Assembly: GCA_016869515.1 (NCBI GenBank)
Contig: VGDZ01000003.1
Location: 18,804 to 82,803 of the forward strand
Length of the DNA: 64,000 bases
Reading direction: 5' to 3'
Origin: Alphaproteobacteria bacterium
GTDB taxonomy: Bacteria; Pseudomonadota; Alphaproteobacteria; VGDZ01
Shown here: positions 12,181 through 21,930 of the stretch, piece by piece
Layout: the number at the start of each line of letters is the position of its first letter
Position numbering within the stretch: position 1 is the first letter of the stretch
The notes under the pieces: generated by a model
What the model saw: the letters and a program-made list of their open reading frames with translations, nothing else
What the model was told of the DNA's origin: nothing
The model's database searches: none
Translations under genes and position numbers: made by a program

Positions 12181-12837
12181 ATGCCGACCCGGACCGACAC
12201 CGAACTGCTCGCACGCTGCCGACGCATCGGCACCAGCACCTGGTCCGACGCGCTGGACGAATGCGGCATCGACGGCGTGGTGCGGGGGCTGGTCAAGCGC
12301 GGCGGCCAAGGCCGCGTCGCCGCCTTCGCCGTCACCGCCACCGAAATCGTCGGCCACCGCGGCCAATTCGCCAAGAGCGAATTCGGCGTCGGCCGGCTAG
12401 TCGCGGCCTGCGGCCCCGATGTCGCCTTGCTGGTCGACATGGGCGGAGCCGAGGTCTCGACCTTCGGCGGGCTGGCCTCGCTGGCGGCCTCGATGCGTCG
12501 CGCCGGCGCCGTAATCGTCGACGGCGCCTGCCGCGATGCCGACGAGATCGCCGCCACCGGCCTTTGGCTCGCCAGCCGGCACGTCACGCCCACCACCGGC
12601 AAGACGCGGGTCAAGCTGACGGCGATGGGCGAGCCGGTGACCATCGGCGGCATCGTCGCCCGCCAGGGCGATCTGGTGGTGGCCGACGACACCGGTATCG
12701 CCATCGTTCCGCGCGGCGAGGTCGCTCGCGTGCTGGCGGTGGCCGAGCGCATGCTCGGCATGGATCATCAGATCGAGCGCGCCATCCGCGACGGCCAAAG
12801 CTTCGCCGACGCCGCCAAGGCGGCCAACTACATTTAA
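12181..12837 (+). CDS. RraA / 4-hydroxy-4-methyl-2-oxoglutarate aldolase (HMG/CHA aldolase, oxaloacetate decarboxylase) family protein
   Basis: ATG 12181 (Met 62 of the track ORF); about 218 aa; RraA-like core (GAVIVDGACRDADEIAATGL, DDTGIAIVP). Confidence 0.7.
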   Translation: MPTRTDTELLARCRRIGTSTWSDALDECGIDGVVRGLVKRGGQGRVAAFAVTATEIVGHRGQFAKSEFGVGRLVAACGPDVALLVDMGGAEVSTFGGLASLAASMRRAGAVIVDGACRDADEIAATGLWLASRHVTPTTGKTRVKLTAMGEPVTIGGIVARQGDLVVADDTGIAIVPRGEVARVLAVAERMLGMDHQIERAIRDGQSFADAAKAANYI

Positions 12838-13877
12838 AGCGCCATCAGGCCGCGGCTGTCGACGCGCAGGCCGATGGCCTGGCCGCGCGCGAAATCGCGC
12901 CGCGCCTCGGTCTCGATCACCAGCGGCCGCTCGCCGCCGACATCGACGAACAGCCGCGTGCGGTCGCCCAGGAAGAACGCCGCCGCCACCGTGCCGCGCA
13001 GGGGCGGATTCGCGCCGTCGTCGATCGCCACGTCCTCGGGACGGAACAGCGCCTCGCGCGCATCGGCCGGGGCCTCGGGCCAAGCCAGCGCGCCGGCGGC
13101 GGTGACGAAGCGGCCCTGCTCGATGCGCCCCGACAGCCGGTTCATGGTGCCGATGAAATCGGCCACGAAGCGCGTCGCCGGGCGCTGGTAGATCTCGCGT
13201 GGGCGCCCGACCTGGGCGACGCGACCATGATCCATGACGACGATGCGGTCGCCCAGCGCCATCGCCTCGGCCTGGTCGTGGGTGACGTAGACCGCGGTGA
13301 TGCCCAGCCGCCGCAGCAGCCCGTCGATCTCGAGCCGGAGCGAATCGCGCAGCTTGGCGTCGAGCGCGGTCAGCGGCTCGTCCAGCAGCAGCGCCCGCGG
13401 CCGCACCGCCAGGGCGCGCGCCAAGGCGACGCGCTGGCGCTGGCCGCCCGAGAGCTGGTCCACCCTTCGATCCGCCAAGGCCTCGATGCGCATCATCGCC
13501 AGCATCTCGCCGACCCGGGCGGCGATCTCGGATCGGGTCAGGCGCCGGATGCGCAGGCCGTAGCCGATGTTCTCGGCCACGCTCATGTTGGGGAACAGGG
13601 CGTAGGACTGGAATACCATGCCGACATGGCGCGCCTCGATCGGCAGGGCGGTGACGTCCTCGCCGTCGAACAGCACGCTGCCGCCGGCATCGGGTCGTTC
13701 CAACCCGGCGATGATCCGCAGCGTCGTGGTCTTGCCGCAACCCGAGGGACCCAGGAACACCACCGTCTCGCCGGCGCCGATGTCGAGATCGAGCGGCTGC
13801 AGCGCGCGCGTACCGTCGGCAAAAGTCTTGGCGCAATTGCGCAACCGGATCGCCAGCGGCTTCGTGGCCTGGGTCAC
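12834..13877 (-). CDS. ABC transporter ATP-binding protein (PotA/FbpC-like importer ATPase)
   Basis: GTG at 13877 overlaps upstream permease stop (GTGA); Walker A GPSGCGKTT, signature LSGGQRQRVALARAL, Walker B LLLDEPLTALD, C-terminal TOBE-like domain; the upstream 216 aa of the track ORF overlap the permease gene. Confidence 0.8.
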   Translation of the reverse strand: MTQATKPLAIRLRNCAKTFADGTRALQPLDLDIGAGETVVFLGPSGCGKTTTLRIIAGLERPDAGGSVLFDGEDVTALPIEARHVGMVFQSYALFPNMSVAENIGYGLRIRRLTRSEIAARVGEMLAMMRIEALADRRVDQLSGGQRQRVALARALAVRPRALLLDEPLTALDAKLRDSLRLEIDGLLRRLGITAVYVTHDQAEAMALGDRIVVMDHGRVAQVGRPREIYQRPATRFVADFIGTMNRLSGRIEQGRFVTAAGALAWPEAPADAREALFRPEDVAIDDGANPPLRGTVAAAFFLGDRTRLFVDVGGERPLVIETEARRDFARGQAIGLRVDSRGLMAL

Positions 13878-20176: not shown

Positions 20177-21439
20177 ATGGGCATGACCGCGCTGGAAAAG
20201 ATCTTCGCCCGCGCCAGCGGGGCGAAGTCGGTCGCGCCCGGCGATCTGGTGGTGGTCAACGTCGACACCGTGGTGATGCTCGACAGCAGTTTCTTTCCCT
20301 CGGTGCGGCGCGAGGTGGTCAAGGTCCACGATCCGCGCAAGGTGGCGGTGATCTACGATCATTTCGTGCCGGCGCCGGACGAAAAAGCCGCCGCCGCCCA
20401 GGCCTATGGCCGCGCCTTCGCGCGCCGCTTCGGCATCGAACGCTTCCACGACGTCGGCCCCGATCAAGGCATCAGCCACGCCGTGGTGGCGGATCACGGC
20501 TATGCCCTGCCGGGCAGCGTGCTGGTGTGCTCGGATTCGCACACTTGCGCCTCAGGGGCGTTCAACTGCGCCGCGCGCGGGATCGGCGCGCCCGACATGA
20601 TCTATGCCCTGACCACCGGCCAGACCTGGTTCCAGTTGGGCGGCACGGTGCGCTACGACCTGAGCGGTCGCCTGCGGGCAGGGGTCTCGGCCAAGGACGT
20701 GTTCCTGCATCTGGCCGGAACCTACGGCGATCACGCCAATTGCAATATCGAGTTCGGCGGCCCGGCTTTGGCCGATCTTGGCATCGGCGCGCGGCGCACG
20801 CTGGCGGCGATGGGCGCCGAGCTGAGCGCCGAGTTCGTCACCTTCGAGCCCGACCAGGCGCTGATCGACTACGTCAAGGCGCGCAATCCGGCGCCGTTCG
20901 AGCCGCAATACCCCGATGCCGAAGCGCGCTATCTCGACCGCCGCCGGGTCGATCTGGGCGCGATCGAGCCGCTGGTGGCGCGGCCGGACTCGGTGATCCG
21001 CAATTCGGTCGCGGTCGGCGCGGTCGCCGGCCAGCGCATCGACCAGGCCTTCATCGGTTCCTGCGCCAACGGCTCGCTCGACGACCTGGCCGAGGCGGCG
21101 CGCATCGTCGCAGGCCGCAAGGTGGCGCGCGGCGTGCGCTTCCTGGTGACGCCGGGTTCGCAGCGGGTCTATGCCGCCGCGCTGAAGGCAGGCCATGTCC
21201 AGACCTTGACCGAGGCCGGCGCGGTGGTCACCGCCGCCACCTGCGGCGCCTGCTTCGGCGGCCATATGGGCGTGCTGGGTCCGAACGAGGTCTGCATCAC
21301 CGCCTCGACCCGCAACTTCAAGGGCCGCATGGGCGCGGCCAGCGCCCGCATCTTCATGGCCTCGCCGGCGACGGTCGCCGCCTCGGCCATCGCCGGCAGC
21401 ATCGTCCATCCCGGCGAGTTCGCGGGAGGGCGCGCGTGA
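20177..21439 (+). CDS. Aconitase-family dehydratase large subunit (LeuC / dimethylmaleate hydratase DmdA-like, short ~420-aa type)
   Basis: ATG 20177; Fe-S cluster ligand motifs VCSDSHTC, IGSCANGS and TCGACFG. Confidence 0.8.
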   Translation: MGMTALEKIFARASGAKSVAPGDLVVVNVDTVVMLDSSFFPSVRREVVKVHDPRKVAVIYDHFVPAPDEKAAAAQAYGRAFARRFGIERFHDVGPDQGISHAVVADHGYALPGSVLVCSDSHTCASGAFNCAARGIGAPDMIYALTTGQTWFQLGGTVRYDLSGRLRAGVSAKDVFLHLAGTYGDHANCNIEFGGPALADLGIGARRTLAAMGAELSAEFVTFEPDQALIDYVKARNPAPFEPQYPDAEARYLDRRRVDLGAIEPLVARPDSVIRNSVAVGAVAGQRIDQAFIGSCANGSLDDLAEAARIVAGRKVARGVRFLVTPGSQRVYAAALKAGHVQTLTEAGAVVTAATCGACFGGHMGVLGPNEVCITASTRNFKGRMGAASARIFMASPATVAASAIAGSIVHPGEFAGGRA

Positions 21440-21930
21440 TCGCCGGCCGGGTGTGGAAGTTCGGCGACGACATCAACACCGATCTGATGCTGCCGGGATC
21501 GGTGCTGTATGCCTCGGAGGAGGAACAGAAGCGCGCCGTGTTCGCCGCCAACCGACCGGGCTGGGTCGATCAGGTCAAGCCCGGCGACGTGCTGGTGGGC
21601 GGGCGCAATTTCGGCATGGGTTCGAGCCGGCCGGCGGCGCGGTCCTTGCGCAACCTCGGCCTCGCCTGCGTACTGGCCGAGTCGATCAACGGCCTATTTT
21701 TCCGCAACGCGGTCAATTTCGGCCTGATCGCCTTGGCCTGCCCGGGCGTGCACGCGGCGTGCGAGGAGGGCGACCGGTTGGAACTGGCGATCGCGGATTG
21801 GCGGGCAAGCAACGCACGGACCGGCGTGGCGCTTGCGGTGACGCCGATCCCCGAGGCGCTGCTCAAGCTGATGACCGGCGGCGGCATCTACCCGCATCTC
21901 GAGCAGCGCGGCCTGATCCTGCCGCGTTGA
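21436..21930 (+). CDS. Aconitase-family dehydratase small subunit (LeuD/DmdB-like)
   Basis: GTG 21436 overlapping large-subunit stop (GTGA); 164 aa; swivel-domain motif NFGMGSSR. Confidence 0.75.
   Translation: MIAGRVWKFGDDINTDLMLPGSVLYASEEEQKRAVFAANRPGWVDQVKPGDVLVGGRNFGMGSSRPAARSLRNLGLACVLAESINGLFFRNAVNFGLIALACPGVHAACEEGDRLELAIADWRASNARTGVALAVTPIPEALLKLMTGGGIYPHLEQRGLILPR

Follow-up and report, generated by a model that had tools for sequence, protein, structure and literature searches.

We describe here a cluster of genes from an alphaproteobacterial genome (Alphaproteobacteria bacterium, assembly GCA_016869515.1), which lies within a stretch of 64,000 nucleotides (nt) of contig VGDZ01000003.1, in the following called the window. 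The genes in question occupy positions 16744-21930 and encode, in this order, a lyase of the PEP-mutase/ICL (PEPM/ICL) family, an isochorismatase-like Cys hydrolase (ISO), two paralogous CE4 proteins (CE4a and CE4b) and the two subunits of a LeuC/LeuD-like hydratase (Table 1). For the sake of simplicity, we will refer to the three central genes ISO-CE4a-CE4b as the triad. The window has a G+C content of about 68% and shadow open reading frames (ORFs) were abundant in the raw ORF lists; genes were called with a caller based on codon-position G+C with start trimming, and by direct translation. The gene coordinates obtained in this way were the same as those of an initial annotation, made from the sequence alone, which had described the region as one translationally coupled string on the plus strand.

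The six genes are tightly packed and co-directional. The lyase and ISO genes are separated by a 13-nt spacer carrying a GGAGG motif, ISO and CE4a share a 4-nt GTGA overlap at 18319, a spacer of 2 nt precedes CE4b at 19245 and one of 5 nt the LeuC-like gene at 20177, and the two hydratase genes share another GTGA overlap of 4 nt at 21436. The junctions had been announced as 2-4 nt wide, which did not hold at 20177. All six genes recur in the same order in a metagenome contig (L088) at 75-84% amino-acid identity. In the case of CE4b, the caller preferred a start at 19293; the start at 19245 is backed by the protein of this contig, which aligns from residue 1. Because the same operon is found in L088 and the ISO-CE4-CE4 core recurs in at least 595 loci (see below), the arrangement goes beyond chance, and 16744-21930 is a real six-gene operon. 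The family of every protein was confirmed by Pfam and NCBIfam, so that the initial assignment to the PEP mutase/ICL, isochorismatase, CE4 (twice) and LeuC/LeuD-like families was borne out. At the same time, none of the proteins reached a curated function-level (equivalog) cut-off of NCBIfam.

Table 1. Features of the window, beginning with the operon and its surroundings and followed by the other clusters.
Feature	Position	Strand	Remarks
PEP-mutase/ICL-family lyase	16744-17631	+	295 aa
Isochorismatase-like Cys hydrolase (ISO)	17645-18322	+	225 aa
CE4a, PuuE-type	18319-19242	+	GTG start, 307 aa
CE4b, paralogue of CE4a	19245-20171	+	308 aa
LeuC-like large subunit	20177-21439	+	420 aa
LeuD-like small subunit	21436-21930	+	GTG start, 164 aa
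Divergent intergenic region, 162 bp	16582-16743	.	presumed promoter/operator for importer and operon
Importer binding protein, SBP_bac_6	15571-16581	-	Pfam/NCBIfam
Importer permeases	13874-14686, 14688-15521	-	Pfam/NCBIfam
Importer ATPase	12834-13877	-	resembles PotA and PhnT
RraA-like gene	12181-12837	+	convergent on importer ATPase gene
Dpp/Opp-type ABC importer, ATPases	21940-22956, 27734-28720		
Dpp/Opp-type ABC importer, binding protein	24825-26657		610 aa
Dpp/Opp-type importer, probable permeases	22959-23726, 23826-24800		no family-library scan
PEPM/ICL-family genes of second cluster	26712-27713, 28747-29649		first without KxCGH motif, second KRCGH
Bacterial-type LeuC, divergent	29875-31287		559.6 bits, leuC cut-off 560.25
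Tandem LeuD paralogues	31297-31944, 31956-32585		
M20 ArgE/DapE-type deacylase	32689-33852		
GntR/FCD regulator	34000-34761		
Xanthine/uracil-family permease	34877-36229		
Allophanate-hydrolase-type amidase	36226-38055		with AH_C domain
FdrA-like CoA-ligase-domain protein, divergent	38155-39693		
Oxamate carbamoyltransferase subunit AllG	39690-41096		
Carbamate-kinase-like amino-acid kinase	41104-42051		
ABC-transporter genes	6-2519		5' of AstE/AspA array; truncated ATPase and two probable permeases
AstE/AspA-family genes	2516-3508, 3519-4550, 5823-6791, 6793-7776		three scanned, fourth by similar N-terminus
Amidohydro_1 gene	4552-5805		amid AstE/AspA array

Homologues of CE4a exist by the thousands at 60-65% identity and are named only ‘polysaccharide deacetylase’ or ‘allantoinase’. 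One genome per species was scanned with two CE4a-specific peptide patterns, and at least 595 stretches were confirmed by tblastn. These triad loci belong mostly to Alpha- and Betaproteobacteria and include many metagenome-assembled genomes (MAGs) from freshwater and soil. Among the cultured carriers are Microvirga soli R491, Verticiella alkaliphila GG226, Burkholderia plantarii KACC 18964 (on plasmid p1), Comamonas endophytica 5MLIR, Salipiger abyssi JLT2014 and Caballeronia sp. LZ035. Genes were then called and clustered in the best 80 of the at least 595 loci, and neighbours were counted over 81 sources, i.e. these 80 and the window; since many contigs are short, the counts of neighbour families are lower bounds. 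In 62 of 64 loci the next gene after CE4a is a co-directional CE4b, most commonly overlapping it by 4 nt, and ISO lies immediately 5' of CE4a in 51 of 59 loci, coupled by a 4-nt overlap in 20 of these 51. Identity to the window is 56-73% for CE4a orthologues, 58-72% for ISO across Alpha- and Betaproteobacteria, and mostly 43-57% for CE4b. Compared between the window and other loci, the nearest lyase is 33-44% and the nearest large hydratase subunit 28-41% identical. Lyases and hydratases of the window type were found in close relatives only, where lyase homologues of 72-82% identity lie directly upstream of ISO-CE4-CE4. Altogether, the evolutionary unit is the ISO-CE4a-CE4b triad and not, as had been supposed, the whole six-gene string.

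The two CE4 proteins both match Pfam Polysacc_deac_1, and both match the allantoinase PuuE far better than any deacetylase. In the case of CE4a, the match to the PuuE structure 3cl6 has an E-value of 5e-29 and identity to the PuuE group is about 26-30%. The CIH/HpPgdA branch, represented by HpPgdA (3qbu), was matched weakly, at 2e-13 by CE4a and at 4e-6 by CE4b. The PuuE model TIGR03212, with a cut-off of 424.6 bits, was failed by both (126.4 bits for CE4a, 97.9 bits for CE4b). An AlphaFold model of CE4a (pLDDT 83) found its best matches in 1z7a, 3cl6 and 3s6o, with TM-scores of 0.72-0.78, so that the predicted fold of CE4a is PuuE-like.

To describe the active sites, 65 orthologues of CE4a and 76 of CE4b were aligned to 3cl6 and 3s6o, and residues are given here in the numbering of BpIH, a PuuE-type imidase. 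In BpIH, E38-H127-W131 stand in for the CE4 metal triad, and the exchanges H127A and R265A abolish activity; in the case of PuuE, H259 has been proposed as nucleophile and E36 as acid (PMC11424739). Without needing a metal, PuuE-type enzymes act hydrolytically on glutarimides as well as on allantoin (PMC11424739). In CE4a, the equivalents of N36, E38, H127, Y215, N220 and H263 were invariant, and Asn always stood in place of W131 and either Tyr or Phe in place of R265. The Asp-His-His zinc triad of CE4 enzymes is missing in CE4a (N-x-E, H-G-x-Y-N) as well as in the CE4b of the window (T-x-E, C-G). CE4a is thus probably the catalytic member of the pair, a metal-independent cyclic-amide hydrolase of PuuE type, as judged from these residues.

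CE4b is 40% identical to CE4a. At the position of H127 it carries Cys in the window and mostly Asn in its orthologues, with a minority of His and also Ala or Lys (n=76), and it is variable at the positions of N36, E38, Y215 and N220, too. Because the PuuE catalytic positions are degenerate, CE4b is probably a non-catalytic partner subunit. The same split into an intact CE4a and a degenerate CE4b was seen in L088, Burkholderia plantarii, Salipiger and Agrobacterium. The two proteins probably act as a hetero-oligomer, which fits their near-obligatory adjacency and translational coupling; PuuE-type proteins have been modelled as tetramers (PMC11424739). The initial annotation had counted three amide or ester hydrolases in the operon. 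The families remain as assigned, and, with CE4b degenerate, there are probably two catalysts among them.

ISO matches Pfam Isochorismatase at 1.8e-28 and shows the catalytic triad D36-K130-C163, each residue being at least 97% conserved among 59 orthologues. Its closest solved relatives are N-carbamoylsarcosine amidase (1.8e-30 and 1.2e-26), 4l07/4l08 (6e-29) and 3ot4/3uao (2e-23), of which we take 4l07 to be the maleamate amidase Ami and 3uao to be NicF. RutB, biuret hydrolase and isochorismatases match far more weakly. No curated model was reached; the best NCBIfam match was biuret hydrolase, with 36 bits at a cut-off of 370. The earlier view of a NicF-like isochorismatase is in keeping with these relatives, N-carbamoylsarcosine amidase now standing next to the maleamate amidases. 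N-carbamoylsarcosine and maleamate are both carbamoyl-X-X-carboxylates and, because the nearest relatives of ISO act on such compounds, a precursor with a five-membered ring is indicated.

The lyase matches Pfam PEP_mutase at 2.3e-42 and carries the catalytic Cys of PEPM/ICL lyases (Cys121) in the lyase-type loop P-K-K-C-G-H; the motif K[KR]CGH was present in 25 of 25 PEPm genes of the triad loci. By E-value (1e-53 to 1e-40) the protein is about equidistant from 4iqd, which is deposited in the PDB as carboxyvinyl-carboxyphosphonate phosphorylmutase, the petal death protein, 2,3-dimethylmalate lyase (2.6e-49) and methylisocitrate lyases. It stays below both PrpB equivalog cut-offs (TIGR02317, 238 against 354 bits; NF008455, 188 against 353 bits). 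One contig (L090) holds a lyase 68% identical to that of the window in an unrelated gene context.

Regarding the hydratase, the LeuC-like subunit matches Pfam Aconitase at 1.8e-81 and has three Fe-S cysteines (C296, C356, C359). It passes the subfamily models PRK00402 (430 against 385 bits) and hacA_fam, ‘homoaconitate hydratase family’ (399 against 386), and the broad NCBIfam model ‘aconitase/IPM dehydratase’ is also passed. It fails the LeuC, HacA and aconitase equivalogs (LEU2, 353 against 611; leuC, 204 against 560). Similarly, the LeuD-like subunit fails the LeuD equivalogs (leud, 100 against 246; leuD, 25 against 116) and passes TIGR02087 (LEUD_arch, ‘LeuD/DmdB family’) with 124 against 109 bits. 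The best PDB match of the large subunit was the isopropylmalate/citramalate isomerase of M. jannaschii (9e-93). By these models, the pair is classified as a two-subunit hydro-lyase of the aconitase family, of the archaeal LeuC/HacA/DmdA type. The specificity-loop region of the small subunit reads LPGSVLYAS, and this loop differs among triad loci. In the window it is without the homoaconitase Arg, at a position that presumably recognises the extra carboxylate in the methanogen homoaconitase; we take this as a weak hint in the choice between a tricarboxylate and an alkyl-dicarboxylate substrate.

The genes around the triad were overwhelmingly those of organic-acid enzymes. PEPM/ICL lyases were found in 26 of the 81 loci and large and small subunits of aconitase-family hydratases in 24 each. 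MmgE/PrpD-like proteins followed with 16, FAD_binding_2 flavoproteins (nearest to flavocytochrome-c fumarate reductase and TcuA) and acyl-CoA dehydrogenases with 10 each, family-III CoA-transferases (nearest to succinate-glutarate CoA-transferase) with 9, and arylmalonate-decarboxylase/maleate-isomerase-like proteins with 3. Proteins of the Asp/Glu-racemase superfamily occurred in 19 loci, LivJ-type ABC binding proteins in 25, TctC binding proteins in 16 and GntR/UTRA regulators in 8. The hydratases of the triad loci are of two types, one of about 460+200 aa (bacterial LeuCD) and one of about 420+165 aa (archaeal). In one relative (L089), lyase-ISO-CE4-CE4 is followed by genes for an acyl-CoA synthetase, an enoyl-CoA hydratase, a molybdopterin enzyme and an aconitase-family protein. 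Overall, the back end formed by lyase and hydratase is variable and has been repeatedly recruited from the same two families.

A complete and compact example was found on plasmid p1 of Burkholderia plantarii (L086; NZ_CP066800.1, 19218-44087), as an island flanked by IS6 and Tn7-like tniB/tniQ elements. One side of the island holds genes for a GntR regulator, LeuC, LeuD, a flavoprotein, a lyase, a porin, an electron-transfer flavoprotein (ETF), an acyl-CoA dehydrogenase and a CoA-transferase, and the other side holds ISO, the two CE4 genes and a major facilitator superfamily (MFS) transporter gene. The pathway is evidently horizontally mobile. Plasmid p1 is conjugative, and a RES-Xre toxin-antitoxin pair also adjoins the island. 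On the Agrobacterium plasmid pAt15955, genes for an MFS transporter and for an amidase of the amidase-signature type come after the CE4 pair, with this amidase in the place of ISO, and on a Salipiger plasmid both ISO and an amidase-signature amidase lie beside the CE4 pair.

An expanded form of the cluster was observed in five Comamonadaceae loci (L048, L050, L075, L078, L081; at about 8000-16000 of the locus). It contains a third CE4a-like paralogue with an intact NEHNYNH set, sometimes a fourth one, and a second isochorismatase nearer to biuret hydrolase and RutB. A PrpD-like gene lies directly 5' of ISO, and genes are present for a PhyH dioxygenase, a SnoaL_2-domain protein with a tautomerase-like N-terminus, and a racemase-superfamily protein that apparently lacks the two catalytic Cys. 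Such a composition points to a substrate that is more complex and contains several amide bonds.

Taken together, we read the operon as a system for scavenging nitrogen and carbon from a small cyclic amide, the likeliest being a five-membered imide of the maleimide or succinimide type. We hold this reading tentatively, with somewhat less than even confidence, and we infer its reactions, their order and the substrate as follows. The compound would be imported, in the window by the ABC system encoded divergently from the operon. CE4a, together with CE4b, would open the ring to a half-amide (H2N-CO-C-C-COO-), from which ISO would free ammonium to leave a substituted enedioate; this product should be cis-configured (maleate-type) because its precursor is cyclic. 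The LeuCD/DmdAB-type Fe-S hydratase would add water to give a substituted malate, and the lyase with its KKCGH motif would cut the C2-C3 bond to give a 2-oxo acid (glyoxylate, pyruvate or 2-oxobutyrate) and a carboxylic acid.

Several links make this order plausible. Aconitase-family hydratases act on cis-enedioates such as maleate, citraconate, dimethylmaleate and cis-aconitate, and ring hydrolysis would fit the hydratase because cis-enedioates are the substrate class of its family. The 2-hydroxy-dicarboxylates formed by such hydratases are in turn what PEPM/ICL lyases cleave, which suggests the lyase as the last step. An imide, which would end in a dicarboxylate, is favoured over a hydantoin, which would end in an amino acid, because the neighbouring enzymes nearly all use nitrogen-free di- or tricarboxylic acids. 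In loci with a fumarate-reductase/TcuA-like flavoprotein, saturated rings of succinimide type could also be accepted. No flavoprotein dehydrogenase gene was found in the window or in L088, and this suggests that the ring product is already unsaturated in these two. The course from amide hydrolysis through a cis-enedioate and a substituted malate to C-C cleavage, which largely agrees with the NicF-, DmdAB- and dimethylmalate-lyase-like steps named in the initial annotation, is the most coherent reading, and the ring-opening step is now added to it.

A more specific version of this scheme, which we consider improbable, would make the triad the front end of a pathway that recycles the maleimides of tetrapyrroles (methylethylmaleimide, methylvinylmaleimide and hematinic acid) from chlorophyll, haem and bilins. 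Here a heteromeric, metal-independent CE4 imidase with one pseudoenzyme subunit would open the maleimide ring, and deamidation would leave a dialkyl- or carboxyethyl-maleate, whose hydration and cleavage would give a 2-oxo acid together with propionate, butyrate or glutarate. Maleimides are documented breakdown products of chlorophyll (PMC7318184). Two observations would be in keeping with this version: some loci carry modules of a glutarate-type CoA-transferase and an acyl-CoA dehydrogenase, and the triad is frequent among Alpha- and Betaproteobacteria that live in freshwater or in association with plants.

A number of observations weigh against the cyclic-imide scheme. The imidase activity of BpIH is weak (kcat of about 0.6 per min; PMC11424739) and may be a side activity. 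Two pocket residues of PuuE are changed in CE4a, invariantly within the family, and for this reason the substrate of CE4a is not readable from its sequence. Lyase and hydratase genes were present in about one third of the loci, many contigs being short, and, as they are non-orthologous among loci, they could serve different downstream routes. In the window no dedicated regulator adjoins the operon, and the searchable literature yielded no publication dealing with the triad. Furthermore, in four loci of Bosea, Roseomonas and other alphaproteobacterial MAGs (L013, L023, L024, L032) CE4a-CE4b occurs without ISO and is followed by EutB/EutC-like genes (ethanolamine ammonia-lyase, named by sequence look) and a D-aminoacylase-like Amidohydro_3 gene, which suggests that some CE4 pairs release an amine rather than open a ring. 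CE4b is more divergent in these four loci (36-45% identity), and they may represent a functionally distinct, amine-releasing subgroup.

The last objection concerns ISO, which by sequence stands equally near to the maleamate amidases and to an N-carbamoyl hydrolase, and a hydantoin or ureide fits the front end of the pathway equally. In such a route, CE4a would be an ATP- and metal-independent analogue of hydantoinase and ISO an analogue of N-carbamoyl-amino-acid amidohydrolase. The product, an unusual amino acid, would be deaminated elsewhere before entering hydratase and lyase, or these two enzymes would serve another purpose. The PuuE allantoinases as closest solved relatives of CE4a, N-carbamoylsarcosine amidase as the top PDB match of ISO and the Asp/Glu/hydantoin-racemase-superfamily genes counted above speak for it, as do class-III aminotransferases in six loci (named by sequence look) and the hydantoinase/oxoprolinase genes that adjoin the Salipiger triad. 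However, most of the recurrent neighbours (lyase, aconitase-type hydratase, PrpD, flavoprotein dehydrogenase, CoA-transferase and acyl-CoA dehydrogenase) use nitrogen-free carboxylic acids, no deaminating enzyme is encoded in the window operon or in L088, and CE4a has other residues at the PuuE positions W131 and R265. In addition, a racemase-like representative seems to have Thr/Ser at the Cys pair of hydantoin racemases, a weak point as it was judged by eye. We therefore regard a hydantoin or ureide route as unlikely.

The initial annotation had pointed to nicotinate and related heterocycles. In its most explicit form, the operon would be the lower part of a hydroxypyridine or nicotinate pathway, in which a CE4 protein deformylates N-formylmaleamate, ISO acts as maleamate amidohydrolase, and maleate is hydrated to D-malate and cleaved instead of undergoing isomerisation to fumarate. 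The resemblance of ISO to Ami and NicF would agree with this, and so would the ‘LeuD/DmdB family’ assignment of the small subunit, the match of the lyase to 2,3-dimethylmalate lyase, and the maleate-isomerase/arylmalonate-decarboxylase-like genes after or beside the triad in three loci. On the other hand, no molybdenum hydroxylase, NicC-type monooxygenase or NicX-type dioxygenase was found in the window operon or among the family-assigned recurrent neighbours of the 80 loci. The clusters have importers of their own, implying that the imported compound is itself the substrate of the hydrolases, and CE4a is without the metal triad of CE4 deformylases and deacetylases. Thus, a nicotinate or pyridine pathway as such appears quite improbable.

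A classical CE4 function, in which both CE4 proteins would remove the N-acetyl group from an acetylated amine, polyamine or amino sugar after its import, next to otherwise unrelated genes, was rejected as very improbable because the zinc triad is missing in CE4a and CE4b. Both proteins do match Polysacc_deac_1, the importer ATPase resembles PotA and PhnT, and ethanolamine-ammonia-lyase-like genes stand beside the CE4 pair in four loci; against this, the binding protein is not PotD, and the coupling of the pair to ISO and to acid-processing genes is conserved. Finally, PrpB and LeuCD enzymes of the methylcitrate cycle and leucine biosynthesis, placed by chance beside hydrolases, are what the top NCBIfam names (prpB and IPM dehydratase family) would suggest, a reading that is effectively refuted by the widely missed equivalog cut-offs, the lack of prpC, prpD and leuB in the operon, the translational coupling to the hydrolase genes and the conservation of the same operon in L088. 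A catabolic operon, as opposed to a housekeeping one, is supported in agreement with the initial annotation.

Regarding uptake, the importer encoded divergently from the operon had been described as PotD-B-C-A-type. The divergent arrangement stands, and the PotABCD assignment was rejected: the binding protein scored 27 against 582 bits for PotD and the ATPase 328 against 482 bits for PotA and 324 against 356 for the potA subfamily. The binding protein is nearest to binders of 2-aminoethylphosphonate, Fe3+ and thiamine. Its best solved relative is 5t1p, whose entry title names no ligand, and its PDB neighbours give no ligand clue. No homologue of it was found in any of the 80 related loci. Other triad loci mostly have LivJ-type ABC systems, and a few have TctC proteins, MFS transporters or porins. 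The importer of the window is therefore a lineage-specific candidate for the substrate importer, whose sole link to the operon is the divergent arrangement. Neither in the 162-bp divergent region nor 3' of the LeuD-like gene did a search reveal a sigma-70-like promoter, a terminator or an inverted repeat. As for the RraA-like gene, to which a final C-C cleavage had been tentatively ascribed, its product reached 38-44 bits at cut-offs of 179-304 for HMG/CHA aldolases, and homologues were absent from all 80 related loci, with none in the closest relatives L088 and L089. As a separate, convergent unit without conserved linkage to the operon, it was rejected as a pathway member.

The window contains three further clusters. 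Directly adjacent to the operon, a second cluster of parallel logic (21940-34761) again combines an amidohydrolase, a hydratase and lyases with an importer and a regulator; its substrate may be related to that of the operon, or the two may be regulated together. It is followed by a nitrogen cluster of ureide type (34877-42051). At the other end of the window (6-7776), an unusual fourfold array of deacylase paralogues of the AstE/AspA (succinylglutamate-desuccinylase/aspartoacylase) family was observed.

In a broader sense, the triad is a tightly conserved hydrolase module of three genes, present in at least 595 species-level genomes and without a curated family model. It appears that neither this combination of enzymes nor its obligatory degenerate paralogue nor its wide distribution has been described in the searchable literature. 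Labels such as ‘polysaccharide deacetylase’, ‘allantoinase’, ‘methylisocitrate lyase’ and ‘3-isopropylmalate dehydratase’ are misleading for these genes. With the substrate identified, a further route of nitrogen recycling would come to light, for a compound that must be common in freshwater and soil habitats. If our reading is true, PuuE-like CE4 proteins would gain a second physiological role besides allantoin, and the pair would provide a natural example of a catalytic CE4 subunit with a degenerate partner.

Known cyclic-imide pathways are the nearest counterpart of the proposed scheme. Blastobacter sp. A17p-4 reportedly has such a pathway, consisting of an imidase and a half-amidase. In the case of P. 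putida CIH and fungal HxnM, cyclic imidases of a second CE4 lineage are paired with an amidase (PMC8478523). HxnM, whose sequence identity to CIH exceeds 60% (PMC8478523), serves with HxnN as imidase and half-amidase in fungal nicotinate catabolism (PMC8478523, PMC9304392). As in the scheme for the triad, a ring-opening hydrolase of CE4 fold is followed by an amidase to yield a dicarboxylate, and the amidase gene is adjacent; on pAt15955 and the Salipiger plasmid, the amidase beside the CE4 pair is even of the amidase-signature type. The differences lie in the branch, with CIH and HxnM in the HpPgdA-like part of CE4 and CE4a nearer to PuuE, and in the half-amidase, which belongs to the amidase-signature family in the cyclic-imide pathways and is an isochorismatase-fold Cys hydrolase in the window operon. 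Moreover, unlike those pathways, the window operon has an obligatory degenerate CE4 paralogue and includes hydratase and lyase.

Compared with PuuE, BpIH and AfIH (3cl6, 1z7a, 3s6o), CE4a shares the fold, the replaced zinc triad, the catalytic Glu/His/His and the N/Y/N pocket. It differs in Asn for Trp131, in Tyr or Phe for Arg265 and in failing TIGR03212, and its context lacks urate-oxidation genes and instead provides the degenerate paralogue and the isochorismatase-like amidase. ISO shares with NicF, Ami and N-carbamoylsarcosine amidase the isochorismatase fold and the D-K-C triad (E-values 1e-23 to 1e-30), whereas its surroundings show no nic, nicotine or creatinine gene context. Of the companions of NicF, nicotinate hydroxylase, 6-hydroxynicotinate monooxygenase and 2,5-dihydroxypyridine dioxygenase, none was found in the operon or among the family-assigned recurrent neighbours of the 80 loci.

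The back end resembles DmdAB and 2,3-dimethylmalate lyase of Eubacterium barkeri, in which a two-subunit aconitase-family hydratase that uses a cis-enedioate also precedes a PEPM/ICL lyase. Maleate hydratase and the archaeal citramalate/isopropylmalate isomerase are further counterparts of the hydratase; family models are passed at the subfamily level. In contrast to the nicotinate fermentation of E. barkeri, the window operon has no other fermentation genes, and hydratase and lyase are non-orthologous among triad loci. Lastly, CE4b can be compared to CE4 pseudoenzymes such as BA3943 of Bacillus anthracis (7bkf, 6hm9), which are among the fold matches of the CE4a model and likewise keep a degenerate site under selection. 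BA3943 stands alone and belongs to the classical metal-dependent branch, whereas CE4b is a paralogue from the PuuE branch that lies nearly always beside its intact partner.

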